Source: Hormiphora californensis
Taxonomy: Eukaryota; Animalia; Ctenophora
Assembly (NCBI GenBank): GCA_020137815.1
Contig: CM035351.1
Location: 7,130,001 to 7,194,000 of the forward strand
DNA: 64,000 bases
Direction: 5' to 3'
This document shows positions 7,550-48,000 of the stretch, piece by piece. The position numbers and the translations under genes were made by a program. The notes beneath the pieces are model-generated. The model was not told the DNA's origin and ran no database searches. It saw only the letters and a program-made list of their open reading frames with translations. Every line of letters begins with the position of its first letter. The first letter of the stretch is position 1.

Positions 7550-9097
7550 ATGGCACAGGCCTGTACTGTTCCAATGAACTTTGGCAGGAGTTATCTGGAT
7601 TTCAAGGGGCTAAACGACCTGGAGTTTACCTGTAGAGGTGGAGAAATTGTCCAGACGAGTTCCTTCCCCATGGCCCTGAACAGTCCAGTATTACGGGAAC
7701 TAGTTGGAACACAACTCAACAAGGGTCTGGACATGGAGGATTTTTCATATTCCTCCGTGCTCTGTTTTGTAGAGTCGTGCTATGCTGGTTCCCTAGTTTT
7801 ACACCGTGATAACTTTCGTGAAATCAACAAGTTGAGTGTGGTGTTCAACGTCTCTTGGATGGAGGAGGAGTGCCTCAAGTTTTATACCGGCCTTTGTGAT
7901 GGACTATCCTCAACCTCTCACGAAATGTTCTGGTTTCTGTTTGGAGAGGCAGAGTACATTCTGAAGGAACGGAACGAGAAATGTCTGCAGGAGATTCTGA
8001 ACACCCGTTTAGATTCTCTACCCAGTCTGAGATCGGATGGGATCCAAGTGTTCCTGGCAGGAGATCCTAACAAGCAAGAGATGGTCACCACTGATCTGTG
8101 TATTTCACTAGCGGGAGAATCAACTCCATATCTTTACAATTGGCTGGTTACTACCATCGAGGAGAGGACTTCACCAACCAATCTTACAGGAGTTGAGAAA
8201 CTGTTTCTGAATGCGAGATCGCTTACAGACTGTTTCCACCTTGAAGAAGCACTGTATAAGAGGCTGGTTAAATCTCTTCAGAGGTGTTTATCAAAAGAAG
8301 ATCTTGGAACCCTGTTCTCAATATTTACCGAAATCCCTCTCTATCCTGCCAGCCAATTTTCGAAATTATCAAAAGTTACTGGAGAGGAATTCAAACTGGT
8401 CTATCCCATTGAGCTTGGCGAACCGTGGCCCAACCAAGTTTCTGTGGAAAATGATCGGCTGTCTAATTTTACGCAACAAAAGCATGACAAATTCAATGAA
8501 TGTTTTTACAAGCTCACTTATAACAATCCCAGAGTTAAGTCATGTACCATGCTTTTAAGTTGCTTATCCTTCCTTTCAAAATCACGTCCCGAGCTCTTAA
8601 TACGGTACATGGATCAAATCTGTGCTGCTTTGCTGACAAAGTGTGGGAAGGAGTGCATTTCAACAGGACTGTGGTGTCATAATCATTCAGTTATTTCTGA
8701 TTATATCCGTAACCCAAAACCAACCGCAACAAACAGGCAGGTTCGTGTTTTGTGTGGCCGATACAACAAGCCGCCTTTCCATTATTCAGATGTTTTATAT
8801 TTAGCTGGTGATGACGATCATAAAAGCTATAAAGTGATATTTTCGATAAGTGTAACAGATGAAAAAAAGTGGCCTAAGTTTACTCTTGAGCTTAAAGAGA
8901 ATTTCCATGTAAATGAGGAAGATTATGATGTTCAACTCATCAAGGATATTAGGGCTCGTGTACTATTTAGGCATTTGTGCATTTATGATAGAAAGAACAA
9001 GCCCCTCCATGTGTGCTATGAAGGAAACTCTTCGTCGTGTAGAGAATTATATGAAGACTGGAAGCTCAAAGGCGTGATAGTTACGGTTATGTGTTGA
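7550..9097 (+). CDS. Single-exon 515 aa protein with an N-terminal BTB/POZ-like domain
   Basis: Long open frame. N-terminus DLEFTCRGGEIVQTSSFPMALNSPVL...MEDFSYSSVLCFVESCYAGSL...NFREINKLSVVFNVSWMEEECLKF follows the BTB pattern. A TACTAAC branch-like motif and TAG acceptor lie just upstream of the ATG. Confidence 0.75.
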   Translation: MAQACTVPMNFGRSYLDFKGLNDLEFTCRGGEIVQTSSFPMALNSPVLRELVGTQLNKGLDMEDFSYSSVLCFVESCYAGSLVLHRDNFREINKLSVVFNVSWMEEECLKFYTGLCDGLSSTSHEMFWFLFGEAEYILKERNEKCLQEILNTRLDSLPSLRSDGIQVFLAGDPNKQEMVTTDLCISLAGESTPYLYNWLVTTIEERTSPTNLTGVEKLFLNARSLTDCFHLEEALYKRLVKSLQRCLSKEDLGTLFSIFTEIPLYPASQFSKLSKVTGEEFKLVYPIELGEPWPNQVSVENDRLSNFTQQKHDKFNECFYKLTYNNPRVKSCTMLLSCLSFLSKSRPELLIRYMDQICAALLTKCGKECISTGLWCHNHSVISDYIRNPKPTATNRQVRVLCGRYNKPPFHYSDVLYLAGDDDHKSYKVIFSISVTDEKKWPKFTLELKENFHVNEEDYDVQLIKDIRARVLFRHLCIYDRKNKPLHVCYEGNSSSCRELYEDWKLKGVIVTVMC

Positions 9098-9605
9098 GTT
9101 CTTGGTTCTTCAATCTTCATAGTAATTTGTCCATTACAATACACCTTCAGAAGGCAGTTCGATTGTGCCTGATTAATAATCAAATTTAAACGCAAAAGTT
9201 ATAACTTTCAATTTAAGCGTTTTAAATTGATCATTACTTATGAATATGCATATTTTCTTTTTTTAATTTTCTACTTTTTTAAAAACCACATACCGTAAAT
9301 TATATTTTATCTAAGACAGCTGTAGCTGCTGGATGTTTTATATAACTGACCTTTTTAAGATAGATTTTGTACGGGTGTTTTAAGTGTTTCAAATCTATGG
9401 ACTTTAAATCCATCTTTTTAGTTTTCATTTTCTCTTTCTTTATAGGACAATGCAGTGTGTAAATTTAGCTTCCCTCTGCCTATAACACACGCTTGTCCCC
9501 TCCTCCCTCCCTCTCTCTCCTATCCCTTACACAATCGTTACTTGTTTACATAACTCACCAATCTCTTCCCATAGTAACACCATGGCACAAGCCTGATCCA
9601 GGGTA

Positions 9606-9813
9606 GTAGGAGCGCTTAAATCAGTTCGCACCAAACGTCGGGCACCACCCTTTTTGTGCATTGTCATAGCTCCTTCATTTCACCTCCAATTAAAAAATGA
9701 CCTTCAAGTTTTCGAAAGATTTCTTCGAGATCTACAAAAAACTTGAGAGTCACAGTAACCTAAATTACGGGTGGCGTGCGAGCTTTGCACGTGTATGCTC
9801 TAAGCGCTCCTAC
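9606..9813. mobile_element. Small MITE with TA target duplication (Tc1/mariner/Stowaway-like)
   Basis: TA|GTAGGAGCGCTTA ... TAAGCGCTCCTAC|TA terminal inverted repeats. Confidence 0.55.
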
Positions 9814-10032
9814 TAGAGGCCAAATTCCAGTACACCACGCCACCGACTAACAGCCATTTCTAGTGTAACAAGAATTATTTGCATTATGTATCCATAATGC
9901 TACGTTTCCCTGCCCTCTTCGATTTGCCATTCAACTCGCCCAACGAGTAAGCTGTCCGCAAAATGGGGATTTGTGTTTTTCGAATTTTTGAACAAAACGC
10001 AGAACAGATTTTTCAATTTCTCCATTTTGAGT

Positions 10033-10034
<2 letters not shown>

Positions 10035-10127
<93 letters not shown>
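10035..10127. repeat. (CA)n microsatellite
   Basis: Directly visible. Confidence 0.95.
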
Positions 10128-10131
<4 letters not shown>

Positions 10132-10350
10132 GCAAGCTCAATTTAGCTATTCACCGGCTGGGTATAGGGATGAGGTACTGGCAAGATATAGTGGGATCGC
10201 TACTGCCGGGCGCCGTTACGATCTGGGTGTTTGGAGGCCTGTTTACAGGTGCACGCTGCCAAAAAAGTTGATTCACTAAAATGGCTCTAACCGCTAAACC
10301 ACTCAACCGTTTTGACTGATTCAAAGTTTATCTGGTAGGGAATGTCAAGG

Positions 10351-10408
10351 CCTAACCCAAACCCAAACCCCAACCCTAACCCTAACCCTACTTTAGCCCT
10401 AACCCTAA
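10351..10408. repeat. Degenerate interstitial telomere-like (CCCTAA)n tract
   Basis: cctaacccaaacccaaaccccaaccctaaccctaaccctactttagccctaaccctaa. Confidence 0.7.
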
Positions 10409-10921
10409 AAAACCGTTTGTCAGCACTCCCAAAACATCCAGATTTTAACGTTGGCCGCTACTGCCCAGTGCCCACATGACAATTCTCCATTTTCCCCAAT
10501 CAAAACGCCTGGCCGATATAAAACAAATTTTGCCACGCGTTACAGTTTATAGCCGCGCGCCCCTCATAAAATTTCAATTGTTTGTGCGCACGCATTTTAC
10601 TCCGCAAGTGTCAGATCGCGCGCGCCGCGAGGTTGCCCCTCGCAACGAAAGTGTGACCAAAAAGGTCCCTCTACCGATTAGTTAGTATACCAAAATGTCG
10701 TTTTCGAATTCTAACCCTGCTATGCCTTTTTACAAAGTAAAAAGGCATCCGGGTGAATGCCTTCGGCATTCACCCGGGCAGGGAAAAAATCGAAAGTGTA
10801 GTATGTTGTTTTTAAATAAAGTACTTTTAAATGTATGATATTGTTTTACTCTCAAGCTCACATTCATTCTTTCTCAAGACTCAAACTTTTAACTTTCAAT
10901 CAAACTTCATTACCTTCCCTA

Positions 10922-11242
10922 CACCCTGAATCGCAGTTAGCTACATGATCAATACCAATTACTAACCAATATATCACCCATTAGTGTTGGTAATACCATG
11001 GCACAGGCATGTACTGTTCCAATGAACTTTGGCAGGAGTTATCTGGATTTCAAGGGGCTGAACGACCTGGAGTTTACCTGTAGAGGTGGAGAAATTGTCC
11101 AGACGAGTTCCTTCCCCATGGCCCTGAACAGTCCAGTATTACGGGAACTAGTTGGAACACAACTCAACAAGGGTCTGGACATGGAGGATTTTTCACATTC
11201 CTCCGTGCTCTGTTTTGTAGAGTCGTGCTAAAGCTGGTTCCC
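10922..11242 (+). pseudogene. Truncated near-identical duplicate of the 5' end of the BTB-like gene (7474-7793)
   Basis: About 320 bp match including upstream sequence; TAT->TAA nonsense change at codon 78; homology stops abruptly at about 11242. Confidence 0.9.
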
Positions 11243-11870
11243 CCCTTTTCCCCTATAACTTTCTAAAACCCCTAATTTGGTCCACCCTTTGGAAAAAAAA
11301 AATCTCTACACTACAGCCTGAATCCCTTCCACTGGTTCAGATAAACCAACGCCCAACCCACCCCCCCCTCGGTTTAGTTTGGAACAATGGACCCTCTTCC
11401 TAGATGGTGTGCTCAACCCACGTGACGTTGATCTCTACTGATCTGTTAGAATGTAAAAGTTGTTTTAGAGCGATGATTGATCATTGATCATCTCTTTTTA
11501 TTACTAAACCAAGATGTCTGTCTGTCTACTACCCGTCCGTCTGTCTGTCTGTCTGTTGTCTGTCTGTCTGTCTGTCTGTCGTCCTTCTGTCTGTCTCTGT
11601 CTGTCTGGTCCCTGTCTGTCTGTTGTCTGTCTCTCCAACCTTCATATTTGTAGCCAGATTAATATTGTATTTATGACACTTTTTTAAAAAAAAATTTCTG
11701 ACCCACGCTCCTCTCTCTCCTCTCTCTCTGTCTTCTATCTCTTCAATCTCTATCTCTAATCTCCTCGCCTCTCCTCTCTCTCTTACATCTCATCTCCCCT
11801 CCGACTCTCTCTCTCTCTCTCTCTCTTCTAATGACTCCATAAGCATCATCACAGGGACTATACACCCTCT

Positions 11871-11892
11871 CCTCTCTCTCTCCTCTCCCCTT

Positions 11893-11983
<91 letters not shown>
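11871..11983. repeat. (CT)n microsatellite
   Basis: Directly visible. Confidence 0.9.
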
Positions 11984-11986
<3 letters not shown>

Positions 11987-12154
11987 CGTTCTCTTTCTTG
12001 ACGTAGGTAAGACACCTGCCTCAGCTAATATTAAAAGACAAAGTACTTCGACCCATTTAGTTTCTCTCCTTGACATATATTGATGCGTTCCTACTGACCA
12101 TGTATATGTTCACAAGCTTGAAATACCTCATTCTACTAATCCTAATCTATGCAG

Positions 12155-14699
12155 TAAACCCAGGCTACATACCACTCCTGCTGCCTAAACGAAAGGTGAG
12201 TGACTTTATTTGGTTTAGTATTGCAACAATCTGTTCAGTTTTCCTTCGTTTGAAACCTAGTTACTACTACAATCTCTCACCACTCCCATTTCTCCCAGAA
12301 GGATGCAGAGGATCGGGATGGTCAGGATGGTCAGGATGAACCCAGCACATCTACATCAGTAAGTGTGAAATTCCTTTGACCCCCACCACCCCGGTGTTGC
12401 AGTAATCTCAACAGTTTCTAGAATAACCGTCACACCGACAATGTAGCAATTTAAACTGTTTTCAGAAGAGGAAGTCTAAGCGTCGAATGGTATCCTGTCC
12501 CTACTGTAATGTAACAATGAGATCTGACAATTTAAAACGTCACATTGGTAGTTCTAGATGTAAGAAATGGTGTCCAGACTGTGACAAAACTTTCCCTGCA
12601 GACACTTTTGAGGGTCATCGGATAACACATGTCGCGAAGCTACAGCATAACATTCACACATCCGGTGGTACTAGTGGTCACATAGAAAGTCCAGAGCCAG
12701 AAGTCCAACTAGAGGTTGACACAGAAATGTGTGAAATTTACCGTAGTAATCCAAGTATTGGTTCCTCAGTAAAGTTAGGAAAAATAATGGATGTATTTAA
12801 CTACCAGATTGAGCACTTCACAAATTTTGAGATTGGTCGATTGGTCAGGAGAGTGTTTCAGCAGCAAACTCAGGCATTTAAAATTAAATTGTCTATTGGT
12901 TATGTACTGCGACATATAGAAACGCAGGAGCTAGCATACTATCGTCCCTCGCAAAATAACCAACTACTATTTGAGATACCAAAGTTGATTAAGAATATAG
13001 ATGATGTGAACAGTTTTGTGAGAGATATCGAAGGATTAGATTTGGAGATCACTGTAAACCGACCATCAACCAAATGGCAGTTTGTTCGGGCGACAAACAT
13101 GTCCGTATTTGTGTACAGATTAAGGGGGATACCAATTGGTAGCGGTATCACTTTACCGAAGTATTTGGTGAATAATAAGGGTCTTGTAGCGTTGGTAAAG
13201 TGTCGTGGTACAGGGAAACAATTTGAAGACCAGAAATGCTTTTTCCGTTGTCTGGCTTTGTTCCGTGGGGCTGCACCAAAGGCTCTAGAACGAACGACAA
13301 ATGCTCTAATCAAGGAGTATTGTACCAAGTGTACTATAGACAAGTTCGACGGCGTGTCTTTAGATCAACTAGAAGATATATCACGAGTGTTCAAAATCGG
13401 GATACATGTACACGAGCAAGATGAGAAATTACAGTCATTTTCTGTTTGGCGCTCAATTCAAGAGGACAACATAATGCACGTCAACCTCTTTGAAAATCAT
13501 TTTAGTTACATTACAGATTTAGCAAGGTACTCCTCTTGTTACAGGTGTAACAAATGTGACAAGCTGTTCGATAGACATGGGAATTATTATCGGCATACCC
13601 GGTCTTGCGAGGCAGGCGTGAGACATAAGTTTGTCGGGGGAACATTTAGAGTCAAACCAACTGTGTTTGATGACTTGAAAATGCATGGGGTACATATACC
13701 GGAAAGTATCCGCACGTATCCATATCGTGCGGTGTACGATATAGAAAGTATGCTATCGAAAGAGTTTGATCAGCAAAATACTGAAAAAACTACTTACGTC
13801 AGTATACACCGCCTGATTTCTATTTCGGTGTGTTCTAATGTACCCGGATTTGATGACCCCAAGTGCTTTGTACTCAAGTCTGCAGATGGGCAAAATGAGC
13901 TAGTAGAAGAATTTCTGGAGTACCTTAGGCAAATAAGCGATGAGGCTGCTAAGAGGGTGAGAGAGGTCTACGAAGAATACGCCGTGGAAGAAATTGAGGA
14001 CGAGACCATCCAGGGAAAGTGGGAAGACCATATCTCACAACTCCCTGTCTTGTCGTTTAACGGTGGTAAATACGATATTAACGTATTGAGAGAACACCTA
14101 TTCCCTCTTTTAGCCAAGGAAGGGGCTGTGAAATATGTAATCAAGAAGGGGAGTAGCTATATGTGCCTTAGTACAGAACAGTTGAAATTCCTGGATCTAA
14201 TTTATTACATAGCACCCGGCAATAATTTGGATCAATTTACAAGGGCCTACGGAGCCAAGGCGAGAAAAGGTTATTTTCCATATGAATGGTTAAATGAGTT
14301 TGACAAGTTGGAAGTGACAGAATTCCCAGCATATGAGACCTTCTATTCAGCATTAAAAGATCAGAATATGCTTGAGCCGAAGGTTGGTGAGAGTTTAAGT
14401 AAAGATGAAGAAGGGCTTATTGGTAGAAGGTCTGGTTCCAGTCAATCTCCCTCAATCACGAGAGAAGAATCTATCGTCATCGGTAGATTTAGATACACAC
14501 AACTTAAAGAGATGTTTGATGCTAGAAGTTGGTCTATGAGAGATTACCTACAGCACTACAACAACTTGGATACCATCTCCCTCGTAGAGGCAATTGAAAA
14601 CCTCGTACAATACTACACTGATCGAGGAGTTGACATCTTCAAACAGGCACTTTCAGGTATACACATTACACACACATACCCACCGTCCACACACAGACA

Positions 14700-14744
<45 letters not shown>

Positions 14745-15965
14745 CGTCCCTTAATCAACCACTATCTTTTTAGTACCGGGTATTGCCGAAAGAATTGCAT
14801 TCAATGGACTGAACAACAAGAATGAAGTTTTTAGCTTGTTCAGCGGAAAGCATAAGGACTTGGTTCAACTGTTTTTGAAAAACAATATAGGAGGTCCAGC
14901 AATTATTTTCTGTCGTTATGCAGAAGCAGGTACGTTTCCTCTTGGGAAAGATTTTTAAAAGTAGAGAGAGGGGGGGGGGGGAAGAGAAAGAGAGATCTAA
15001 CTATTTTTTAACTAGGTGTAACAGCTATACGAAACAAACTGGGGAATCTGTGCAAGCGTATAGTAGGATATGACGCCAACGCATTATATCTCAGTAAGTC
15101 CAAGACCGGTTAATTTTCTTTTTTAATTTCAACAACTTTAGTTCCATAATGTTGATTAGACTAATTCCTATGCCTACAGGTTGTATGGCTGAAAAAATGC
15201 CATGCGGTATGTTCATCAGACGGAGAGAACCAGGGTTTGAGCCTGAATATCCTACCAAGTTCTCCAGAGTATCGACTGAATGGTTAACATGGTGTGAAGA
15301 CGATCTTGGTATTGAGATACTACATGCAAGAAACAGTGGAGAAGTGAAGATAGGACCACAAAGAATACCAGTTGACGGGTTTCATGAGTAAGTCATATAT
15401 GTCCCACATATCTAAATAACTGAATTGCACCTTCTTTTTCTTTCAGTTTTTCAATTATTCATATTTCAACATTTCAGACCATCCAACACGATTTTTCAAT
15501 TCCACGGATGTTGGTTTCACGGCTGTCTCAAATGTTTCCCTGACAAGGAGGAGAGGGAGGTGAAAACTTTTTCAAGGAAGAGTCATAACTTCAACCTCAG
15601 TAGGACTAATAAGATCACTGCTGACTTCAGAGCTCTTGGGTATAAGGTCAGTTCCCTATTTCATAAACAGTCAATCATTATCTCAAGTCTGATCCATTCC
15701 TCTCCTTTTAACCTCTTACGACTCACATTTTCCCAAACCCTAGGTTGTTGAAATATGGGAGCATGAATGGCGACAGAAGAAAAAGACTCTCAATCTATCA
15801 AATCGATACTTTTACCCTTTAGAGGACCAATATCGGTTGACACCGAAAACGATCATCAAAGCAATAAAAAATGGTACACTATTTGGAGTCATAGAGGTGG
15901 ACATATCCGTTCCTGACCACCTCAAGCAAAAGTAAGGATTGAAAAGGGCAAATTTACTAACGACT

Positions 15966-16005
<40 letters not shown>

Positions 16006-17072
16006 CTTGTATTATAGAGAGAGAAGAAAAGAACCCATTTTTCAGGTTTGAGGAAATGCCTCCCATTTTTAAGAACACCACCATTAATGAAGCTGATATT
16101 GGGGAGTACATGCAAAATTTTCTTCGTGAAACAGGTCAAAAGTTCACAGCACGGCGAAATCTCATTGGTTCAATGTTCGGGATTAAGATGCTGTTCATCA
16201 CACCGCTATTAAAGTGGTACTTGAAACATGGACTGGAAATCACCAAAGTGTATCAAGTGATCCAATTTAATCCGGTGAAGTGCTTCGCGAAGTTTGCTGA
16301 CAATATCTCGGACGATCGTCGGGCAGGTATGTGCGACTGTTAGTTTAAAAAAAAGGGGGGGGGGGGTAAGGTAATGAATGTTTACTCATTAAATCACCAA
16401 TCCCATCAGGTGATGCTGATTCCAGCAAAAGCACGATAGCAGATACAAGCAAGTTAATTGGGAACTCCGTGTACGGACATTGCATTATGCGAAAAGATAG
16501 GCACTCGAACGTTCAGCTAGTGGACCTAGAAAAAGCATCAAAGCTGATAAATGACCCTAAAATGAGTAGCTTTGAAGAGTTGGGTGAAGACACATTTGAG
16601 GTACAGTATGATTATGATTGGTCATTATATTCTCTAGTCTGGTACGGATAGAACAGTTACAATACTACCATACACAGTTTTACTATTCGACAATCCCCCC
16701 CCCCACCCCTCAGGTGACGAGTAGAAAAAGAACGATCACTTTTGATCTTCCAGTACAACTTGGCTTTTTCGTATATTCGTACGCGAAGTTAAAGATGTTG
16801 GAATTCTATTTTGACGTATTGGATAGATTCATAGACCGTTCCAACTTTGTTCTCCTTGAAATGGACACAGGTAACTTTTCAAACTACTCCATGTGCACTA
16901 ATCATAAAGCAGTACGATACATTTATTTTCAATCTTGCTAGATTCTCTGTATCTGGCGCTTGCTGGAGAAAGTTTGGATGAGCTTGTGAAGCCAGGGATG
17001 GAAAACGAGTGGGATCTAATAAAGAAACAATACTTCCCTCGAGATGATCATAAAGCTTATGATAAACAGTAG
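12155..17072 (+). CDS. Maverick/Polinton-type protein-primed family B DNA polymerase, intron-containing
   Basis: Exons 12155-12195, 12299-12358, 12466-14656, 14774-14929, 15016-15093, 15180-15387, 15478-15646, 15744-15931, 16046-16326, 16410-16600, 16714-16870 and 16942-17072. All introns are GT-AG and phase-compatible; exons from 12466 sum to 3750 nt. Motifs: Exo I YDIES, Exo II FNGGKYD, KGYFPYEW, Exo III YNNLD, Pol A YDANALY, Pol B KLIGNSVYG, Pol C MDTDS. Confidence 0.9.
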
Positions 17073-17149
17073 ACCTCCACTTTGTCAGTCCTAAATGAAC
17101 TAACAGTAAGCTTAACTATTTGACACTTAATCAAAAAAGAACATTTACA

Positions 17150-17494
17150 ATGTGTTTTCTTCTATTCAGAAGGTTATTTTAACAGGTTGAAAGATGGCTG
17201 GGTTATATGAGTACAAACTGCTGAGAAACTTAAACTTTGTAACTAGGAGTCATTACACAGAACTTAAGCTTAAACTTTTCACACTGTCACTACTTAAAGG
17301 ACTACGAAGTCTTTTCGGTGATAGCAAGTTTAAGAATTGGAAATAAGCTGGAATTAGATTTCAAAGACGGAAATTGCTTACAAAATCAACACGCAAGAAA
17401 GCCGGACTCACACTTGTCACTCTTTGAGTACTACAAGAAAAGGTCTGATGATGGTATTAGTACAGATATCGGAAATTGGGAATTGTTCAAGTAG
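17150..17494 (+). pseudogene. Frameshifted remnant resembling the pPolB C-terminus
   Basis: Different frames give AGIRF..., KKAGLT and YYKKRSDDGIST, resembling the end of Polinton pPolB proteins. There is no continuous frame. Confidence 0.45.
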
Positions 17495-17849
17495 GAAATG
17501 CGTATTGTCTTATTAAGTCACTCATATCATCTTTATGTTAGACTGCCGTGTTACGCAGATGTATTATGTCATTATCTGATATTTAATTTTATATATATCG
17601 TTCATAATGCGTCACCAGTGATCATGTATGCAACTAGTGTCCAGTACCGACCAGAAACGGTGACCTATTTTTTCTATAATAATAGTATATAATCGTTCAT
17701 GAACATGAGTCACACGGGATGTAGTCAACAGCAGCACAGACCAGAACGGGTAAGCCAGCATTCTCAATCTACTCTTGGCGAATCTCTATATACCTCTCTC
17801 CTCTATCTCTACCTAGGTCTCAGGTATGAGACGTTGGGACGGAGCAGAG

Positions 17850-18017
<168 letters not shown>

Positions 18018-18063
18018 GTTTCTCCGGTTGGCTGTCAGAGCTCTCTCTCTCTCTCTCTCTCTC

Positions 18064-18650
18064 TCATGTGAACCACAAATTGACCATATATGGTCATAAA
18101 ATCAGTCACCTGATCACCACGTGACTGCAGTCAACAAGCCAATCAGAGGTCGGAACGGGTGCCTCACTTGGTCCAGAACCAACCACAGCAGAACAAACGC
18201 ATCACGTGAACCACGTATTGACCATATATGGTCATAACATGCGTCATGTAAATTGACCATATATGGTTATAACATGGGTCACATGATTATCACGTGCCTG
18301 CAGTCAACAGCCAACCAGAGGCCAGAACAGGTACCTCACTTGGTCCAGAACCAATCTCGGTAGAACAAACGTATCACGTGAACCACCTATTGACCATATA
18401 TGGTCATAACATGGGACACGTGATCACCATATGACTGCAGTCAATAACCAATCAGAGGCCAGAACGGGGTGCCTCACTTGGTCTCGAATCACGTGACCAG
18501 TCACATGACCGATATCGGCCGATATGCTACAGATATTGGTCATGTGATTGATCACGTGTAGTAACCGACCAACCACAGCAGAGCAAACGTGTCACGTGGT
18601 ACAATTAAGGGTCACGTGACCACGTCATCAGCCAATCACAGGCCAGGATT
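18064..18650. repeat. Degenerate ~140-175 bp tandem repeat rich in CACGTG, CCAATCA and the palindrome TGACCATATATGGTCA
   Basis: The unit tgaaccac..attgaccatatatggtcataa...ctgcagtcaa..ccaatcagagg..agaac...cctcacttggtc recurs about 3 times plus a partial copy. Confidence 0.8.
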
Positions 18651-18725
18651 TTGCCTCGCTTATCGGGTAATTTAGGTCCCTACTACTCGATATATACTAC
18701 TTACATCACATAGCCACACATCGCC

Positions 18726-19849
18726 ATGTCTGATCTGAGCAACCACACCATCCTACCATCATCCTCCCTACTCCATGGTGTTGACATTGCCATAGGAGTC
18801 ATCTACATGGTAACAATACCAATCGGGTTGCTAGGCAACGTGGCTGCATTCTGTTATTTCTGGTGCAAATCATGTGACCTCCCATCCCTTCTCTACCTGC
18901 TAACTGCTGTAATTGATGTGCTCCTTCTGGTTATGAACATCGCCCCCGGACTCTCCTTCTTCTACTCCCGACACCCCCTTCTCTTCTCCTACAACACCTT
19001 CTGTACCGTGTGGGATGTCCTCCACTTTATATCCAACAAGATAAGCGTGATGTTGGTATTGATCCTGTGCGTAACAAGGGCACATGCCGTGGCAAAACCC
19101 CTCAACCACTCTCAAACATTCACTAAATTCAGAGTTGGATGTTTCCTTGTGGTGTTTTCCCTGGGTGTCCTCTCTGTGGATTTCTTCCAGCGGGTACAAG
19201 GATGGGGCCACAGCACCTATGTAGCTCATGATGTTTACTGCTGGATGACTGCACCAGACGGACCCAACACCACAGACGGTAGCGAGGTATCAGGAACGGA
19301 CAACCTCATATACTTCTACATGGTCGGATTCTGCCTTCTTGCCCTACCCATAATCCCAGTGTCAGTTGCTAGTACCTTTACATGTCGTCAGTATGAGGAA
19401 GGCAGTTCAAATCGGGGGCAACTACAGTGGGGCCCAACTAAAGAAACAGGCTACAATCACCACCATTATCTTCGCACTGGCCTACATCATCTTCAATATT
19501 CCCACTATTTATCAACTATGTCACATGGACTCTAACCATCCTTCTCCAGCCTGACCTGTTTGTTAAACTATACGAGAACAACACTGTGGGCTACATGTAT
19601 GTGTGGAACATTACGGATGTGCTCTGCCCGGCACTCAATGCAACTGTTAACCCGTGTATATACTGGTGGCGCTTAGCCAGTTTCAGAAGATGGGCTGCTG
19701 TTGGTACGCAGGGTGTTAACCGACAGTGGGTCAGACATCAGACGACATTTAGGACACACGCGTCAGTGTCACGTGCTATTTTTGTAGTCACCCCTAGAGC
19801 TAGTATCTGTGAGCAGAAGGATGTTTTAGAGCTGGAGAAAATCGAGTAG
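18726..19849 (+). pseudogene. Rhodopsin-like (class A) GPCR, intronless, with two +1 frameshifts (pseudogene or sequencing error)
   Basis: TM1 GLLGN, TM2 LTAVIDV, TM3 Cys ... VTRA at the DRY position, TM6 AYIIFNIP, TM7 NATVNPCIY. Removing one base at about 19383 and one at about 19502 restores a continuous 7TM frame. Confidence 0.8.
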
Positions 19850-20131
19850 CAGTGTGGAATGTAGTGGAATTGCGTGACAGATTGTACCGTATAGCTACAA
19901 CTGTCAATTAATGACACTCAATGAGAGTCCGTGCTATATTTTGTAATTGTTTTTTTTTCAATTGCTCATGCTGGAATTGTTGATCATGTGACGATTTAAA
20001 AGTGTTATCTTAGCTGTATTTGTACACTTCGTGAATCGAATTGTATTTCTAATGGTTATTAATTGAAATATTTTTCATTAACTTTTCATGTCATCTCCAT
20101 TATTACACTTGCACTGCCCTTAGCCCTTCCT

Positions 20132-20410
20132 CCAATCAACCAACCCTCTCTCTCTCTTTAATCAACCAACTCTCTCTTCCTTCAATCAACCAAACTCATC
20201 TCTCTCTCTTTAATCAACCAACTCTCTCTTCCTTCAATCAACCAAACCCCTCTCTCTCTTTGATCAACCAACTCTCTCTTCCTTCAATCAACCAAACCCC
20301 TCTCTCTCTTTAATCAACCAAATCTCTCTTCCTTCAATCAACCAAACCCCTCTCTCTCTCTCTTTGATCAATCAAATCTCTCTTCCTTCAATCAATCAAC
20401 TCTCTTTCTC
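20132..20410. repeat. ~50 bp minisatellite (TCAATCAACCAAACCCCTCTCTCTCTTTAATCAACCAACTCTCTCTTCCT)
   Basis: About 5 degenerate tandem copies visible. Confidence 0.85.
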
Positions 20411-20567
20411 TCCCTCTATTTGGTTCGGAGACTTCCTCAATAATAAACACGGGTACCTTTTCAATACCTTTTACATTATTATCAATTATCAGGACTGTTT
20501 AAGTGTCCACAAGGAGGGGGAGGGTTACCTAATCCTGATTATTAACCGCTTTTTTGTACCCCTGCAG

Positions 20568-20856
20568 GTCGAGGAAGGTGTGTCACCACTCTGTATCTCA
20601 CCCAAGATAACCACAACGGTACGATAGCTCATTATTTGATTGGGGGGAGGCTTGAAAAGTCTATCGATACCCTGATTTTGGACGTTAGAATTTTTAGAAT
20701 TTTTTAGACTTTTTTAGGCTTTTCGCACTAACAAAGTCTAAAAAGTCCATTGATTTTGGCCGATGAATAACATGCCTTGTTGTACTGCAGGCTGATGTGG
20801 AACTGAAGGTAGTTCAGAATGATGAAGAAGAAGAAGAGGAATCTCTTGTGACCTGA
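20568..20856 (+). CDS. Two putative terminal exons of an unidentified gene
   Basis: cag|20568-20618|gta and cag|20791-20856 join in phase 0: VEEGVSPLCISPKITTT-ADVELKVVQNDEEEEEESLVT*. Confidence 0.35.
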
Positions 20857-21454
20857 GGGGCCACACTCTACTTGAGGGTGACTACAATTGGGGGGCACTA
20901 CTGGTTTAGTGTCTGCTGTTGGACATTATCAGATGAAATATGGACCCTGTGTCGTCCTGAATGAGACTAACAATGGAATGAACACTGTAACATACACACA
21001 CACAGACTTGTAATAGCTCACACTCTGTGAGGCCGTTCCGCAGAGCCAAATATTACAGACGTATCATATATGAATCTTTTGAAGTTGTGAAAATTCCATA
21101 TTTATCTTCAGTTTAAATTCAGTAAGATACGACTTTTTCGATGTTTCGTCAAATGCAATATGTTAATACTAAATACAATCTAGGTACAAGTCGTTAATAC
21201 CACACTACTTTCAGTTCAGTTCCAATACCAGTCCTCTAATTACTGCTATAGTGCTACTAGTGCTGTACTGCTTATCAACTCACAAACAAGGTCAAGCAGG
21301 ATAAACAAGTTACAACAACCTATACAAACCTCTTCAATAAAATTCTACAAACAACAATAATAAAGTCTACTGCAGACTTCTCTCTGTCAGGATCACCAGG
21401 TAAATACACAAACTATTAAATATCGCTTCCCGCAAATTCTACAATTAAAGTGTC

Positions 21455-23153
21455 CTAATTAAAGAATTGTATTGACATAAACCTATGATCCTCTTTACAG
21501 TCCATTCCTAGTTTTTCGTAAAACCCCCTCACCTTTTCATTGCAGTCCAGGCTGAGTTTGTAGCACCGGGTTGACTCCGCCAACAAGATACAGATATCAA
21601 GGAGCATCTTACCAAACCCACGGCCCTGTGTAGAGATGAAACTGTGTTAGGAGTTGACATGTTAGAGGAATCTAGAGCAATGAAAGAGGTACAGTGGGTA
21701 CAGTTCTAGAGAGGGAGGGTACAGGGTATGTGGTAATGGAAGTTAGATATTCAGAGACTTGTTTATACATCACATTCTGATACACGATTCTCTAAATATT
21801 GTATTTGTAGGGCGAGAATCACACACAGACAGCTTCTCGTCTTACAAAAACACTTGACAAATATACAATTTCCAATCTTAGCTAGGTTGAGGTGAGAACT
21901 GACTAGGTCATGACGTCACAATGACGTCACACAATTACCTGATGCTCGGGGTGAACTACTACGTCCTCTATCCGGCCCCTATTGGCCACAGTATGTATTA
22001 TCTTGTGCTCCACTTGTAGTGTAGCACTACCCACTATCAGGTCACTAGATTCATGATATACCACCACTATGTAGTGGCCCCCACCCGATCGCATCTGAAT
22101 GGGAGGGGGATTATTATCATTATGGGCATTATTATCATTATTATTATATGTTCTAACCCTCCTTTATAACGGGGAGAGGGGGTCGAGCAAGGCACGGGAG
22201 GGGCATGTGAGGAGGGAGGGGGATTATTATGTTCTAACGGGGAGAGGGGGTCGAGCAAGGCACGGGAGGGGCATGTGAGGAGGGAGGGGGTAAGTGAAAA
22301 CCGGACCACTACCAGCTACCTAATATGGGGCTGGTTGAATAGTTTCTCGGGGTTAAACAAAGCTGTCAACTTCCCTATCATGTTTGACAGATCTGTGACC
22401 TTGGCATATATAACACAAAAATGGGATACCAACACGTCCTTGAGTTCCCCAGCTCCAATCTCGTATTGCAAAAGTAGAACTTGGAATTCCCCACCCACTG
22501 CACAACAATGATCGTCCTACATTCCGATTCTCTATACCCAGTACCCCCCCCCCCCCCCGCCATGATCAGTATATCCTCCTAAACATCAACACTATCATCA
22601 CTATACCTTGTCAAATTGTTCCTCGAACATGTCTCGAGTGACATCACCCACTGTGGTGAGATGTGACAGCAGCTGACAGTAGCCCCGCCCGTAATCCCCT
22701 CTCTGAAGTGGGCGCACCTGCAGGTGGTGGTGGAGTGATCAGTACGTCATATCACAGATATTGATTTTCTAATACTGATAGCTATACTGATTTTCTAATT
22801 CATACTGATAGCTATTGGCATCCCAGCTCTTCTGATATATTGCACAGCAATATCAGGAAATCACAGCGGGACCCAAGTTAGCTCGACCCTTTCTCGCGCT
22901 ACCCCTCCCTCCCCCCATGATGAAATCCCCTTCCCTCTCCTAGAGCTCAATATCGAGGGCGGGTACCGGGCACCATGCCAAAAGTAAAACACCCCTCTTT
23001 CCCATACTTCTATGAAGTGGCATGCCAATGATATCATACCTTATATTCGCCCTGTTGAGATATTTTAGTGGGGGACATGTCAGTGCGATATGTTGCTCTC
23101 GACTTGCTCCAGTCCAGGGAATCTAAAATCTCTTGATCAAATATATCCGTCAT
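21455..23153 (-). CDS. GNPNAT1: Glucosamine-6-phosphate N-acetyltransferase (GNAT family), 183 aa, 4 exons
   Basis: Exons 23040-23153, 22607-22717, 21939-22094 and 21455-21625 give VRPLQRGDYGRGYCQLLSHLTTVG, ATLQVEHKIIH...RGRIEDVVVHPEHQGRGFGK and CYKLSLDC...GFYEKLG, the characteristic GNA1 motifs. Confidence 0.93.
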
Positions 23154-27152: not shown

Positions 27153-28130
27153 CTAAAGAGTCTGAAAAAGTCTATGGTTGTAGCCAAGTGTTGACTTTAA
27201 ACCCTCCATTAGAGATTTGGTACATTCCAACAACAGTTCCATCGGTACCCCAACCATCTCCCTCTCACCCCCCTCTTTGAAGCGATGCAGGGGCAATGTC
27301 TCCCCACTCCTCTCACCTCCACGGCACAAATCATCCAACGTTACAAATGCTATCTCATCAGATTCCCAATCCTCGAAACCTTCAGCGGTGTACCTAGCAG
27401 CAACTTGTTGTGCGCTCAGCGGGGTACGGAGTATGAAATTAAATTCAGGTTTTAGGGCCACATTTTTATCCCGGGTTATACCCAATAACCTGATCTCCCC
27501 CAGATTCTCCTCCAGCAGATTCAACTCCTCTCTCAGCTCCCGGCCAAGACTATCAAATATCTCATCCCTGATTTTATCACTCTCCACCTCCGACATCCCT
27601 TCCTTGATCCCTATCTCGGATGGTTCAGGGTGTCCCCCCGGGAAGTGCCACATTCCACCGGCATCAACAGCAGCGGATCTTAATTGAATGACAACTAGAT
27701 CATCACTAGTTACCAACACAGCACTGTGGCCTATAACATGTGCTATACACGCATCTCGGTCTCCAAACAGCCTCTCTCCTGCCCTCTGGAATTCCTCCTG
27801 TAGGTCACTATTCACAGTCACTGTGTGGTCCCGATAGTTCGTCATACCGGTCTTTACCGTTATTCCTGATCCCTCTCCCAGGACAAGGGAGAGGTTTTCA
27901 CTACATTTCCTAATCTGGACCCCATCTGCAGTATTGGGAGATATGCCAGCACATCTGAACTTGGTTCCATTAAAAAGGGCTGGATTGGCAGTACACCGGG
28001 CACCCCAGATCTCATCACCATCTCGCTCCAGATCAGGGGTTGCCTTCCTCCTGTTGAAGTTGGGTCGGTGACATACCCGGACTTGCTCCCGGCAGAGAGG
28101 TTGAGGGAAAAAGAGATTCCTGGCTGACAT
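27153..28130 (-). CDS. NUDT22: NUDT22-like Nudix hydrolase (UDP-glucose/galactose pyrophosphatase family), 325 aa
   Basis: LFNGTKFR, GMTNYRD, VTSDDLVV, FPGGHPEP, EIFDSLGRELREELNL and WESDEIAF match NUDT22 family motifs. Confidence 0.85.
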   Translation of the reverse strand: MSARNLFFPQPLCREQVRVCHRPNFNRRKATPDLERDGDEIWGARCTANPALFNGTKFRCAGISPNTADGVQIRKCSENLSLVLGEGSGITVKTGMTNYRDHTVTVNSDLQEEFQRAGERLFGDRDACIAHVIGHSAVLVTSDDLVVIQLRSAAVDAGGMWHFPGGHPEPSEIGIKEGMSEVESDKIRDEIFDSLGRELREELNLLEENLGEIRLLGITRDKNVALKPEFNFILRTPLSAQQVAARYTAEGFEDWESDEIAFVTLDDLCRGGERSGETLPLHRFKEGGEREMVGVPMELLLECTKSLMEGLKSTLGYNHRLFQTL

Positions 28131-42000: not shown

Positions 42001-45000
42001 CAGAGTTTCCAGTATGTTCTCCTCGACGAATGACGTGCCCTGTTTGCTGCTACCCCGTACATTATCGATCGTAATATCATCTTCATATCCCTCTCCCACG
42101 ACAAATATCGTGCAATCTTCAAACCTGTGTAATAATTGGGTCGTTACACATTGGTTTGTTAAAATCACTGCTGCTGGATCACTATGCAATGTTTTGCAAA
42201 CTGTTCTCACATGCAAGCCCTCCGTTACCACTGACAACGGCAAACGAAACGCGCGCGCTCCAGCTAACTTTCATCGTAAAACTCTGACCGCGCGCTACGT
42301 ACCTGTTATCCTGGACAATCACTTTGATTTCAGCCTTCAGGTTGGAAATGTGCATGGATCTGCAGACGACATCAAAGGAAACCTTCTCATTGACATCCAA
42401 ATCCAGCAGAACAGGTCTTCTAATTGGAGTTAAACCAGGTAGGAAATATCCATAAGCAGTTGCTGGTTTTTCTACCGCACCCTCAACCACCAAAGCAAGT
42501 GTTTCATCAGGAGCATACAAAGTAAATGATGAATCTGGGGTGTGTATCTCCACCAATATCTTAGCCCTGATATTTCCTGTGTTTTGGATTATCAGAGGTT
42601 TGCTCTGGCTCTGTCCCAGGAGCAGTCTGTTAAACTGGATGACTGGCTGGTTCTTGACGGTTGTCTTGATTGGTTCCAGGATGGTTATGGTTGGTAGTGT
42701 TCCCTCTCCCTGGATATCAAATACTAGACTCCTATCCTTCATAATACTCTGGTGAAGTCCCTCTGCGTTTATCTGGGTGTGGGGAGAATGGTTAGGAGAT
42801 GCTTGCCATTTTTTCATCGGTAAATATTAAAGTAATAATAAATTGCAAGGCATTCTTGTTTGAATTGTAGTTCTGCTAACCTACCCTGCAACCCCCAGGG
42901 AACCCCCACCACCCAAGTGATTTCCCTTACTATACCTCGACTATTGCTGAGTAGTTTTGGAATGCAGAAGGAGCAAAGGTAACAGTACAGTAGACGTGCT
43001 GATAGGGTGCTATAGTAACTCGGCCTGGTGATATATCAAACACATCACTCGTTTGACTGCTCTTGGCAATGGCCTTTGATTGGGGTTGTTTTACCACACA
43101 TGAAATGTCACACGGCACCTGATGATTAGGAGATGATTGGTGAAAAATCTGATGAAGGAAACATATCATAATTGATAATTCAGTCATTATGTAAAAGGAT
43201 CATTGCACTAATTTATGATAATTACCATTTTATTGTTGGTAATTTTGAACCGTGCCACAGCTGTCTGCCCGACAATCACATAGTTAAAGAGGAATCTGTT
43301 CTCGGCCTCAACATAAACCCCGATATCACCAGCTTCTTTACCCTGTGTTAACTCCAATATATCCTGACTGGCCACAATCTTGTGCTCCTCAAAGATCACC
43401 GAAGTGTCCTTGGTCTCGAACCCTGGTACAACTACCTCACCAGATAGCTTGTAGTAGACGGGGGGCTCAGAGGGTAATCGGTCAGAGATATCTATAGCTA
43501 GAATCTCCTCGCTCCTCCCCTCCGTCTCAGCAAGGCACTCTACAGTGATGGTCTGCTGAGATTGGAAGTTGATTGTTCCGCTAGCCGGGTAAAGATAGAA
43601 CATTCCAAATTGTGCCCGGACATTTCCACCAACTATCTCCTGACGCCGGGTGGTAGAAGGGACGTTACTCAAGCTGTCTGATCTCTGTCCTCTGCCCTTG
43701 TTGGCTAGCATCAACTGAGAGGAAGTTCTCCCACTATCTCTGGTACTGCCCCTCTGTTTCCCTCGCTGACCTATCACTCCCTTGTTACTGATCTTCACAA
43801 TATTGTACCGGAACTCAAATTCACCATGGTTCTCGATGTAGAATTGACGTTGCTTCTTGATGTTGATCACCATGGGCCCAAAGTTGACATCTTTTAGGGG
43901 GTGAATAGCAAACTTGCTGAACACAGACCGGGCACTTAGCTTCACAGGAATTTTGGCCACAACGCCACCTTGGTTTCCCAAGGTGCGGCTCAATCACTTG
44001 ACACTTCAGAATTGGGAGGTCCTTGATGTTGCACTCCTGTTTACTCTTGAAGATGACATGAACCGTGGAGGGTTTGTCGTTGGGGAACAGTTGCCCAGAG
44101 GGAGGGTCCACCTTAAATAGCTCTATAGCTTCCTTCATTTCTGGATCGGAGGTGTCGAACTCAAACCTGGTAGTGGAGGGGGAATAGTAGTTAGGGGAGG
44201 GTACTGTTAGATGTAATAGTGACTAAATGAGCTGTGGTTGGTATAGAAAAAGAGGTATGGAGTCACTGTGAAGGATAGTGTTATAGCAGAGCAGTAGAAC
44301 AGCATGAGGAGGAGGAGGGAGATTAGTCACGCTCCCTCAATTAATTAAACAAGCACGCCGCGACAGAGTCTATCTAACACAAAACACTCTTGTTTGATGC
44401 ATTAGTTGTTTGATGCGTTATAATGGAGCATAACCGGGACGCAACAAACAGCGTGCACCAAATGTCCAGGTAAATTGTGATTGTCTGATAGCTCGCTACA
44501 TGTCCCTTGCCGGCACTCGAAGCATGTCCCGGAGCTGGTGAAGTACGGAGTACCCGGGAGTGTTGTAGGTACCCAGGGTAATCGGAGCCTGCGAAGGTAA
44601 CGAATGTCGGTGTGTGTATTTTGTAACCCCATATTATGTTCCAGTGTCGCCCCCTCATTGGATACCAAACAAAGATCAAGTCCACGGCGTGCCCGAGGGT
44701 AGTTTAACATTTGTTTGAGTGCACACCTCCAATTCTGGTTGTAACTGGTCGGGAAGACCTCCATGAAGGTCGTGACGGTGCGGGAAAAATAGGGTAGACC
44801 TGCTGCGGCTTCAGAAAATTGAGAAAAAGATAGCTATCTTTTTTTTCACTTTGAAAATAAGACGTTTTTTATTAAAAGATCCTTGATCAGTGAGATACGG
44901 TTGTCCCCCACCTATTTTGTGACGTAGAATCGAATGCCGTTGAAGTCAAATCTCTAAAATGTTGGCAAAATGGAGAAAATCACGTTTTTAGGTGTTTTTT

Positions 45001-48000
45001 GGTGAAAAAAGCGTTCAAACTGGTAGTAGATAATGGGATAGAGTCCCAAAAATATCATAAATCGATTTTTTGGGTCTTTTTCGCCCTAGGAACAGAGTTT
45101 CATGAAAATCTGGTACAACGCCTATTCTCCGTTTGCTTTCAAAGAAGGTGAATATTGCTCTAATTTAGCCAATTTTGAAGAAAAGGCGTCCAAAATGATA
45201 CCAGTTGACAGGATAGAGTCCCAAAAACGTGAAAATCATCAATTTTAGGCATTTTATACCCTAGAAACAAATGGACATGGTGGTCGAATGATATTTTTTA
45301 TCTCGGTAGGCCTCTGAAGTATGTGGAAATAGCCACAATGTAGAGATTGTGGTAAATTAATGTGAATAAAAGTTTACCAAACCCACTTTAGCACCTGCTA
45401 AGTTGAAGAGTGGCTCTTGCATAATCCAGAAGCCCACTAAAGTGGGTTTGTTAAACGTTTATTCACATTAATTTACCACAATCTCTACATTGTGGCTATT
45501 TCCACATACTTCAGAGGCCTACCGAGATAAAAAATATCATTCGACCACCATGTCCATTTGTTTCTAGGGTATAAAATGCCTAAAATTGATGATTTTCACG
45601 TTTTTGGGACTCTATCCTGTCAACTGGTATCATTTTGGACGCCTTTTCTTCAAAATTGGCTAAATTAGAGCAATATTCACCTTCTTTGAAAGCAAACGGA
45701 GAATAGGCGTTGTACCAGATTTTCATGAAACTCTGTTCCTAGGGCGAAAAAGACCCAAAAAATCGATTTATGATATTTTTGGGACTCTATCCCATTATCT
45801 ACTACCAGTTTGAACGCTTTTTTCACCAAAAAACACCTAAAAACGTGATTTTCTCCATTTTGCCAACATTGTAGAGATTTGACTTCAACGGCATTCGATT
45901 CTACGTCACAAAATAGGTGGGGGACAACCGTATCTCACTGATCAAGGATCTTTTAATAAAAAACGTCTTATTTTCAAAGTGAAAAAAAAGATAGCTATCT
46001 TTTTCTCAATTTTCTGAAGCCGCAGCAGGTCTACCCTATTTTTCCCACACCGTCACGACCTTCAGGGAGGTCTTCCCGACCAGTTACAACCGGAATTGGA
46101 GGTGTGCACTCAAACAAATGTTAAACTACCCTCGGGCACGCCGTGAGTCAGCGACCCTCCATACCGATGAGAAGACCATCTACACCATTTCATCTGACTA
46201 CTCTATCCGTGTTTGGGATTTTGAAGAATGTACCCTAATCAGTTGTAAAATGATCAAATCTCGGCGGGGCAAGCCCCATAACATCACAACTTCCCCCAAG
46301 TATATCCTGATTACCACTAACGTTGGTCAGCTCCTGCTGTTTGACATCCAGAACCTCCTTGACAACCCCCGACGATGCTATGTTACAGACACACGACAGG
46401 GAAAGTGTGCCATCTCAGCGGACGAAAGATCCATTCTGGTACCGTCTTATGATCGGAAACTGTATCTATACGACATTAGGATGAATAGAACTGTCCAGAA
46501 GATGTTTAGTCACGGGGACAGTGTGACATGTGCTAGTTTCGATAGAAAAGAAGAACGGTATTGTGTCTCTGGATCTCTTGATAAAACTGTCTCTCTTTGG
46601 GATCTCAGGTTCGCAAAGTTACCGCTGCGAACAACTGCAGTGGGGTACCCCGTACTAAACGTTGTCATGTCCCCCAATGGCCTAGTATCTGCCTCGGGGA
46701 TGTCCAAGGTGGTGAGTGTTCTAGAGATGGGCCTGGATGCGGCTCTGTGGAGGTGCCCCGCTCACCAGGGGTGGGGTGAGCAACTCAGCTCTACCGCTGG
46801 GGATTATATCTACAGTGCGGCATACCAGGATACATTAGTACAGATAGATACGAGTAGTGGCAGGGTGAGGCTCATGTGTGATCTCAAACTAGCATGTGTG
46901 TATGATGTAAAACTGACTACAGGGACTAACAAACTGAGGGTTATTGGCTCACCAGATCAGGATGAAATCAAGTTAGTTGTCTGTCTGTCTGTGTCTGTCT
47001 GTCTGTATGGCTGTCTCTTTTACTGTCTATTTGTGGGGTTGTCTATGGGATTGGGTATGGGTTGTCTATGGGATTGGGTAGCTGTAGTTTATCCGCCAGT
47101 GGCGGATAAACTGGTTTAAATCACGACGACGATCCCGAGGCGGAGCCGAGGGAGAGGCGGAGGGGTTTAAACCAATAACGTGCCATTGGTCAGAGTTTAT
47201 GGGTTATATACCCTGCTTTAGTTGTTTGTCTCAAGTATTACACACTAACAAGAGAGAAAACACTAATCAAAACACACAAAGAGAACTGAGAAACAGTCAA
47301 AAACATCTCTCAATTGAGTGTATATTGTTTGGTAACAGTTACTAAGGAGAGAGAGAAAGAAATAACAAGATATGGGGCATGCCAGACATAACACAGAGGA
47401 ATTGAGATAGTGAAACAAAAGGGGAGATAAAGAGAGAGAAATTGACGGAATGTGTTGTTTCTTTCTCTCCAATGCAGTGTGTAACTCTTGCAAACAGTGT
47501 TCCCTCTGTATTTCAGTAAGAACTGATCATTTACACACACTTTGAATGTAACATAGGAGTTAATAATAAACAGCCAGCCAGTGGGAAATAATCTGCCGCT
47601 GGACTGGCTGTATATTGAGAGCGCGCCAGTGGGACTTCTCGCCGCTGGCGGGTTATTTAAGTTAGCAGGGTATATAAATTTCTAACTGTCATGGTAACAC
47701 AAACTCTTCTCCACTAGATCGTACAGGGCGACAGCGGATGAAAAGTTGTCTGACGTTAACTTGACTACCAAGGATAAGGAGGATTTCATCAAGAGATGGC
47801 AGACTCAGATGCAGTTCGATTATGAACCAGACGGAGAACAACAACAGGAGGAACCAGCTGGAGTAGAGGAGGGAGGGACAGAAAAAGGGGAAGAAAAGAA
47901 GGAGGAAACTGAGGTTGTACCGGGGGTTGAGAATCAAGATGGAGAGGAAGAGGAAAATAAAGAAGAGGAAACTAAGGAAGAGGAAAAAGAAGAAGAAGAA

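Follow-up and report, generated by a model that had tools for sequence, protein, structure and literature searches.

The locus described here lies in a 64,000-nucleotide stretch of the comb jelly Hormiphora californensis (NCBI GenBank assembly GCA_020137815.1, contig CM035351.1, positions 7,130,001 to 7,194,000, forward strand; the window in what follows, with coordinates counted from its first letter). On its plus strand, from 12106, it holds the gene of a Maverick (Polinton) protein-primed DNA polymerase of the VSR type, interrupted by 11 introns of the host's spliceosomal kind. Our preferred explanation, which we put at a probability of about 0.76, is that this is the polymerase of an intron-rich Maverick lineage whose introns sit at shared positions, which likely lives in comb jellies, and whose polymerase likely becomes an enzyme only after host splicing.

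The gene comprises 12 exons, free of stops up to a TAG at 17070–17072, and 11 GT..AG introns of 71–117 nucleotides (nt). Exon 1 (12106–12195) contains the ATG, a short, apparently signal-peptide-like hydrophobic segment and a basic end. Intron 1 (12196–12298; 103 nt, phase 0) separates it from exon 2 (12299–12358), a low-complexity acidic and Ser/Thr linker of 20 codons, which intron 2 (12359–12465; 107 nt, phase 0) divides from the 2,191-nt exon 3 (12466–14656). The latter encodes a basic cluster, a Cys/His zinc-finger-like region and a putative terminal-protein region, with vOTU-like Cys (13228–13254) and His (13495–13512) sites, a C2H2 finger (13546–13608) and exonuclease motifs I–III at 13735, 14056 and 14554. 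From here on introns are also numbered by residue and phase on P0054, a Mnemiopsis leidyi model ~40–69% identical to the window by exon. Intron 3 (14657–14773; 117 nt, 739/1, with an internal CA microsatellite) leads to exon 4 (14774–14929), with a GGPA motif at 14890, and intron 4 (14930–15015; 86 nt, 792/1) to exon 5 (15016–15093), with polymerase motif A at 15069–15089. Past intron 5 (15094–15179; 86 nt, 819/1), the VSR endonuclease insertion begins in exon 6 (15180–15387), has its core in exon 7 (15478–15646) and ends in exon 8 (15744–15931), where the polymerase resumes; these exons are parted by intron 6 (15388–15477; 90 nt, 889/2) and intron 7 (15647–15743; 97 nt, 943/0). Intron 8 (15932–16045; 114 nt, 1005/2, with an internal TA microsatellite), exon 9 (16046–16326) and intron 9 (16327–16409; 83 nt, 1099/1) precede exon 10 (16410–16600), which carries motif B at 16451–16477. 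Intron 10 (16601–16713; 113 nt, 1162/0) is followed by exon 11 (16714–16870), ending in the first part of motif C, by intron 11 (16871–16941; 71 nt, 1214/1) and by the reliable part of exon 12 (16942–17067). The stretch beyond it (17068–17850, its right end set at a CT microsatellite) is unreliable, showing a stop and frame-broken traces where further coding sequence would be expected.

An earlier note on this DNA, made from its letters alone, had proposed nine 71–117 bp GT–AG introns between 14657 and 16941 and two upstream; all 11 are found where it placed them. Each shifts the frame or contains an in-frame stop, so that all are required for the open frame, and the junctions are phase-compatible, as had been claimed. 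The nine 3′ introns are returned base for base by splice-aware alignment of P0054 with no junctions given, and introns 1 and 2, where the region is too variable for that alignment, are based on splice signals, frame and relatives. Two details of placement in the earlier note also hold: an intron splits the codon of the last Asp of motif C (16870/16942), and another directly follows motif A, which ends one codon before intron 5. Its start at 12155 gives way to the ATG at 12106: of the three frames, only this one renders all five listed changes in 12106–12195 of a related organism (organism B; 30 of the 44 differences in the contig concerned are listed) synonymous, and relatives share the hydrophobic first exon. 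With the introns removed, 1,298 codons run free of stops upstream of the broken 3′ tail.

Canonical donors and YAG acceptors are present in 11 of 11 introns, and AG precedes the donor in eight, as at proto-splice sites or ordinary exon ends. The 13 predicted introns of the HYDIN gene in the same window are likewise GT–AG, at 93–197 nt with a median of 133 (97 for the polymerase), so the polymerase introns are host-style. In a window-wide comparison they resemble neither each other nor other window sequence beyond microsatellite-type or short matches, and are therefore not introner-like. Introns are concentrated in the 5′ leader and in the polymerase half, an exon of 2,191 nt arising in 0.15% of uniform placements of 12 introns; HYDIN also has exons above 1.3 kb, so a long exon may be typical of the host.

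Exonuclease motifs I–III and polymerase motifs A, B and C are all present in the predicted protein. The earlier note's statement that every motif is intact is correct up to 17067; the last ~105 residues, with the KxY motif and thumb, are missing as assembled. Alignment with relatives shows the upstream Cys and His retained in 35 of 36 rows, and the ExoI Asp and Glu in 36 of 36. Such a Cys/His pair marks the vOTU protease of Polinton polymerases with TP-vOTU-Exo-Palm architecture, according to the accessible portion of PMC11161782, and its place upstream of the exonuclease here fits a putatively active vOTU-like domain. Compared with that architecture the terminal-protein domain of the window polymerase is putative, and the vOTU fold is not among the listed fold matches of the predicted exon 3 model (pLDDT 83). 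A family profile (A2) matches the Escherichia coli Vsr structures 1odg, 1vsr and 1cw0 at E values of 3–4e-6, with the VSR motifs falling in exons 6–8. The best named polymerase matches come from Pleurobrachia bachei and Mnemiopsis leidyi (59% and 41%). An intronless homologue, L036, matches Pfam DNA_pol_B_2 (E 1.8e-10), the profile search that the earlier note had suggested, and its group of loci contains rve/chromo integrase, adenain-like protease and capsid genes. The N terminus conserves a hydrophobic segment after a basic start, with peak hydropathy of 2.7–3.0 (12106–12195 in the window, 908–1070 in L001, upstream of 1375 in L004, and in P0072); it resembles a signal peptide or membrane anchor, which is odd for a DNA polymerase.

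Screening 80 metagenome loci for introns reveals the same architecture in relatives. The close loci L001, L002, L003, L005, L006 and L024 have 9, 4, 3, 7, 9 and 4 required introns, the low counts reflecting early contig ends, and three further close loci stop before the test region. Intron 3 is common to all six, introns 4 and 5 to L001, L002, L003, L005 and L024, intron 6 to L001, L002, L005, L006 and L024, intron 9 to L001 and L005, intron 10 to L001, L005 and L006, and intron 11 to L001 and L006. L001 by itself thus has seven of the nine 3′ positions of the window, in the same phase and with different lengths. Intron 7 is absent from L001, L005, L006 and L024, and intron 8 from L001, L005 and L006. 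The shared intron positions that the earlier note had proposed looking for in relatives are therefore found in six metagenome loci, in matching phases, among members ~40–47% identical whose intron lengths and sequences differ; L006 even carries a 1-kb intron. L001 and L006 also have an intron at 1259/1, from which a 12th intron, followed by a last exon with the KxY motif and thumb, is expected in the unreliable tail of the window. Protein databases bear the same imprint: among the top 40 matches, 16 are intron-blind calls that end at intron 739 and 13 end at the L006-type intron near 710, the remainder being three spliced eukaryotic models and eight that end elsewhere.

Outside the close loci, 44 of the other 71 align beyond residue 1200, and these 44 have at most two required introns each; four occur in L030, which stops before residue 1200. 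Frame-open 'introns' of 57–384 nt near residues 500–560 and 1230–1260 in distant loci proved to be coding insertions and are uncounted. The intron-rich sequences form one clade that includes the Pleurobrachia and Mnemiopsis models, both with FastTree (support 100, 40 of 87 rows) and with IQ-TREE (100/100, 13 of 31 rows), each on the exon-3 region. The trees exclude rows of fewer than 380 aligned residues and exact duplicates, the IQ-TREE topology is midpoint-rooted, outgroups are limited to the homologues found, and no published mollusc or nematode pPolB2 sequence is among the 87 or 31 rows. The window, P0053 and P0001 form a branch of their own (100/100). Fourteen intron positions occur in the clade. 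Because 739/1, 889/2, 1162/0 and 1214/1 are present in both main branches, intron gains began before the sub-lineages split; because 943/0 and 1005/2 are confined to the window's branch, where they are seen only in the window itself, turnover continued later. Introns are thus a well-supported lineage trait of a Maverick clade that departs from the intron-free rule, a departure that has probably recurred in other animals. A search of viral contigs gave 416 pattern matches and no relative. Distant Maverick polymerases at ~30% identity, L073 among them, have one to four frame-breaking introns, and an intron at 1116/1, within motif B, is common to L053, L054, L065 and L067 and to clade members L001, L005 and L006.

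The genomic company of the relatives identifies the lineage as Maverick. In L006, the nine-intron polymerase is followed after 200 nt by an adenain-like protease open reading frame (ORF; cluster representative matching Peptidase_C5, E 0.002) and then by the end of a capsid gene, 57 residues of which match a 435-residue single-ORF call at 98% identity. Against double-jelly-roll (DJR) clusters, the capsid portion of P0020 reaches a score of 0.97 (a lead only, with Pfam on 11% of members); it also aligns with a Maverick capsid at E 2e-11, and 36 of 38 capsid matches are single calls of 435–444 residues. Parts of the lineage look recently mobile. In Mnemiopsis, identical polymerase models are filed under four accessions from different contigs, and a single 90% cluster holds 16 named members; further paralogs at 83–89% occur in both the window's organism (organism A) and organism B. 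Integrase of the rve type is seen only in 12 distant loci, the contigs of the intron-rich clade being too short to tell. Five NCBI Mnemiopsis models (P0020, P0058, P0064, P0071 and P0153) fuse capsid and polymerase pieces under the name 'hypothetical protein', so that the elements are unrecognised in that annotation.

As assembled, this copy ends ~105 residues short of its relatives, and its last exon survives only as traces with a broken frame. Two studies of the same organism provide short-read contigs (X1 and X5); these are identical to the window over 16700–17067, differ over 17068–17446 (357 versus 379 letters), agree at 17447–17464 and then differ again. Contigs of organism B (X10 and X12) also depart from the window at 17067 and continue like the family (loose ends read by eye), and no contig in the four runs covers the window's version of the tail. 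Identity to the same-organism contigs falls from 100% to below 80% at one base, in two samples, a jump that fits an unpolished stretch and so favours assembly error over decay. An old decay would have favoured a truncated, domesticated gene; with the short-read contigs, an assembly error is the likelier account, and the sequence after 17067 is probably one.

Upstream of that point the gene is under strong purifying selection, which suits an active element and a domesticated gene alike. Against organism B, a comparison that the earlier note had proposed in the form of dN/dS, exons 1, 11 and 12 have 23 synonymous and 2 non-synonymous codon changes among 123 codons (13:1 in exon 11; 5:1 in the reliable part of exon 12), and all 10 listed in-gene indels of X12 lie within introns 6 and 7, five in each (12 of 65 indels are listed). 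Intron 11 varies less than the neighbouring synonymous sites in organism B, with just three listed changes and not one indel.

The copy is most likely a coding-intact family member with a misassembled 3′ tail. With an unreliable right flank and, on its left, a shortened host-gene duplicate, it may have been orphaned, misjoined or domesticated; the gene belongs to the Maverick polymerase family, and the locus is not filed as a complete Maverick. The left-hand neighbour is an intronless BTB-like gene of 515 codons (7550–9097) from a large ctenophore family with 248 relatives; its best named matches are from Pleurobrachia bachei and Mnemiopsis leidyi, and the five named clusters of 10 examined are all ctenophore. 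This gene thus points to a ctenophore host, which a search with HYDIN (three matches, 30–37%) did not. The 5′ 300 nt of this gene are duplicated at 98% just upstream of the polymerase (10922–11270), where the copy breaks off; noise in the left flank is only hinted at, by a partial likeness to the BTB-like gene over 11222–11271 and none after. No organism-B contig joins the polymerase gene to a neighbouring gene. To the right lie a satellite (18064–18620) whose ~173-nt units contain many short palindromes and whose depth in organism B is very high, a 7TM receptor-like gene (18714–19850, plus strand) whose frame is broken near 19530, a NUDIX gene (27156–28130, minus strand) and the long HYDIN gene (36000–62000, minus strand). 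The HYDIN region contains two long, near-perfect inverted repeats (44683–46145 and 57735–58702; arms of 709 and 472 nt, spacing of 45 and 24 nt), which may represent fold-back elements or else artefacts of the assembly; a WD40 ORF (45995–47119) on the strand opposite HYDIN overlaps the first of them.

Possible transcript-derived support for splicing comes from a paralog. The alignment of record 16 of X15 (organism A, RNA-labelled, 2,081 nt, ~80% identical) starts exactly where exon 11 does, and the letters before that point encode eight of the last 10 residues of exon 10 (by eye), such that intron 10 is missing. Since intron 10 is present in the DNA of all four clade sequences that reach the site, splicing of a paralog is the simplest reading. 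Other paralog contigs start aligning at the 3′ end of intron 11.

Several observations weigh against an intron-rich Maverick lineage that depends on splicing. X15 is labelled RNA by guesswork, and its record 16 is compared with the DNA of other clade members, not with that of its own paralog; no run recorded as RNA contains this very copy, no read or contig of it in spliced form was found, and X15 has no near-identical contig. Two seawater contigs marked 'RNA?' (X11 and X13, 99% identical) run 30 letters into intron 3 unspliced, and could come from DNA or from unspliced RNA. Nor is the clade alone in having introns, one to four occurring in L053, L054, L065, L067, L058, L014 and L030. Pfam DNA_pol_B_2 matches no window exon and no ctenophore model, and the predicted exon 3 model matches family B polymerases only weakly (best E 6.6e-4). 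In the 64-kb window, no Maverick gene besides the polymerase was detected by tblastn with 820 locus ORFs and 36 clade capsids or by seven profiles: these searches returned no capsid, adenain-like protease or rve integrase, and for the packaging ATPase none of the 820 locus ORFs matches outside the polymerase, no ATPase-specific profile having been run. Nor is there an inverted terminal repeat between 9001–12200 and 17001–22000 (best E 0.57; the right flank is unreliable). For the clade as a whole, no complete element with integrase, ATPase and terminal repeats is seen among its short contigs, and the capsid search could register uninterrupted capsids only, which demonstrates that intron-free capsids exist and not that all are.

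Some of these absences would be explained if, in the sub-branch of the window, P0053 and P0001, the polymerase had been domesticated as the solo host gene of an old Maverick, serving the host in, for example, DNA repair or end processing and keeping introns inherited from the element. The lack of any element gene or terminal inverted repeat, the host genes on both sides, the 23:2 synonymous excess and the fully supported branch all suit this idea. We nevertheless consider it unlikely: an active element passed on vertically would likewise be under purifying selection, both organisms A and B have paralogs, and the solo context may be a product of assembly, with a right flank that contradicts the short-read contigs and a left flank that follows a truncated neighbour duplicate. 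Similarly doubtful is the wider version, in which a comb-jelly lineage captured the polymerase of a Maverick virus as a stand-alone, nuclear-encoded and spliced protein-primed enzyme with its own protease, a VSR nuclease and a conserved hydrophobic leader, lost the rest of the virus and has since held the gene under strong purifying selection. The earlier note had offered either a domesticated, intronised polymerase or an intron-rich Polinton-like lineage; the second is supported by shared introns, a single clade, protease and capsid neighbours and the identical models at four Mnemiopsis loci, and domestication is not needed to explain the introns. It had also reasoned that near-identical dispersed copies within Mavericks would speak against domestication. 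Such copies beside capsid genes do occur at the level of the lineage; for this one copy domestication keeps a small probability.

A somewhat smaller chance attaches to the copy being a dead remnant whose 3′ end has truly decayed, the differing contigs then deriving from intact sister copies elsewhere. It would account for the stop at 17070–17072, the frame-broken traces and the want of other element genes nearby, and most Mavericks in vertebrate genomes are degraded, as stated in the available text of PMC8097293. Natural decay would spread evenly, yet the 1,298 codons upstream are stop-free, and the loss of identity at a single base in two samples, together with a window version uncovered in four runs, is not what decay predicts. 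Very improbable, finally, is that the interruptions are never spliced, being insertions into a decayed gene that end in GT..AG by chance. Genewise does report insertions in degraded Mavericks as introns (PMC8097293, same portion), and the two seawater contigs do read into intron 3; chance insertions, however, would not recur at the same positions and phases with other lengths and sequences in relatives 40–47% identical, place the listed indels in introns and the synonymous excess in exons, carry canonical donors and YAG acceptors in 11 of 11 cases, or be missing, as intron 10 is, from a paralog contig.

The intron-rich Maverick lineage that we favour resembles known systems in its gene content. 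The pPolB2 of marine nematodes and molluscs carries a VSR endonuclease insertion, with introns mentioned only as group I introns in the accessible text of PMC10748475. The window gene is, like it, a family B protein-primed polymerase with a VSR insertion, and its relatives lie, as there, with rve/chromo integrase, adenain-like protease and DJR capsid; unlike it, as far as that text goes, the window gene has 11–12 spliceosomal introns and its clade a conserved short hydrophobic N-terminal exon. Intact vertebrate Mavericks have intronless core genes and are defined by intronless ORFs (PMC8097293, available text), and nematode Mavericks have intronless core genes with introns in cargo genes only (10.1101/2022.07.12.499685, as far as its available part describes). 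The same kinds of core gene occur here, the L006 polymerase adjoining protease and capsid, whereas the window polymerase has 11 introns; the capsid calls of the lineage, by comparison, are single ORFs. Spliceosomal introns inside Maverick-like elements are also known from dinoflagellate proviruses, which bear young, repeated introner insertions according to the portion of PMC11957031 at hand; the window introns differ from those in being dissimilar to each other, old and position-conserved across an animal lineage. Literature on Polintons/Mavericks in ctenophores, Mnemiopsis, introns and intron gain, in the parts of these sources available to us, yielded no report of the clade; Repbase, subscription journals and supplements lie outside this scope and may describe ctenophore Polintons.

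We propose that the integrated element would be transcribed in the nucleus by host RNA polymerase II and that the spliceosome would remove some 12 introns from the polymerase transcript. The product, of ~1,400 residues with a vOTU-like protease, an exonuclease and a palm with VSR insertion, may process itself, and the polymerase would then replicate the excised element by a protein-primed mechanism. Maverick replication runs from DNA to DNA, and thus lacks the reverse-transcribed stage that strips introns from retroelements. Introns once gained would therefore be copied along with the element. An intron-rich polymerase beside single-ORF capsids would fit a replication gene that is transcribed from host chromatin as host genes are; a role of the introns in regulating replication, or in shielding the transcript from surveillance of intronless RNA, is speculative.

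Although Maverick core genes are described as intronless, this lineage likely needs the host splicing machinery to make its polymerase. Prokaryotic gene finders have been used to call endogenous viruses on the ground that 'they do not contain introns' (PMC10120064, in the part available). Since surveys rely on intronless ORFs and such finders, they cut short or score as dead a clade with 9–12 polymerase introns; 29 of the 40 top matches are calls of this type. The clade also offers a datable case of intron gain and turnover, with 14 positions, in a virus-like element without an RNA stage and in an early-branching animal phylum. Because the polymerase is intron-rich while capsid genes occur intron-free, two questions become open to test: the site of Maverick transcription, and whether replication of these elements is gated by host splicing.

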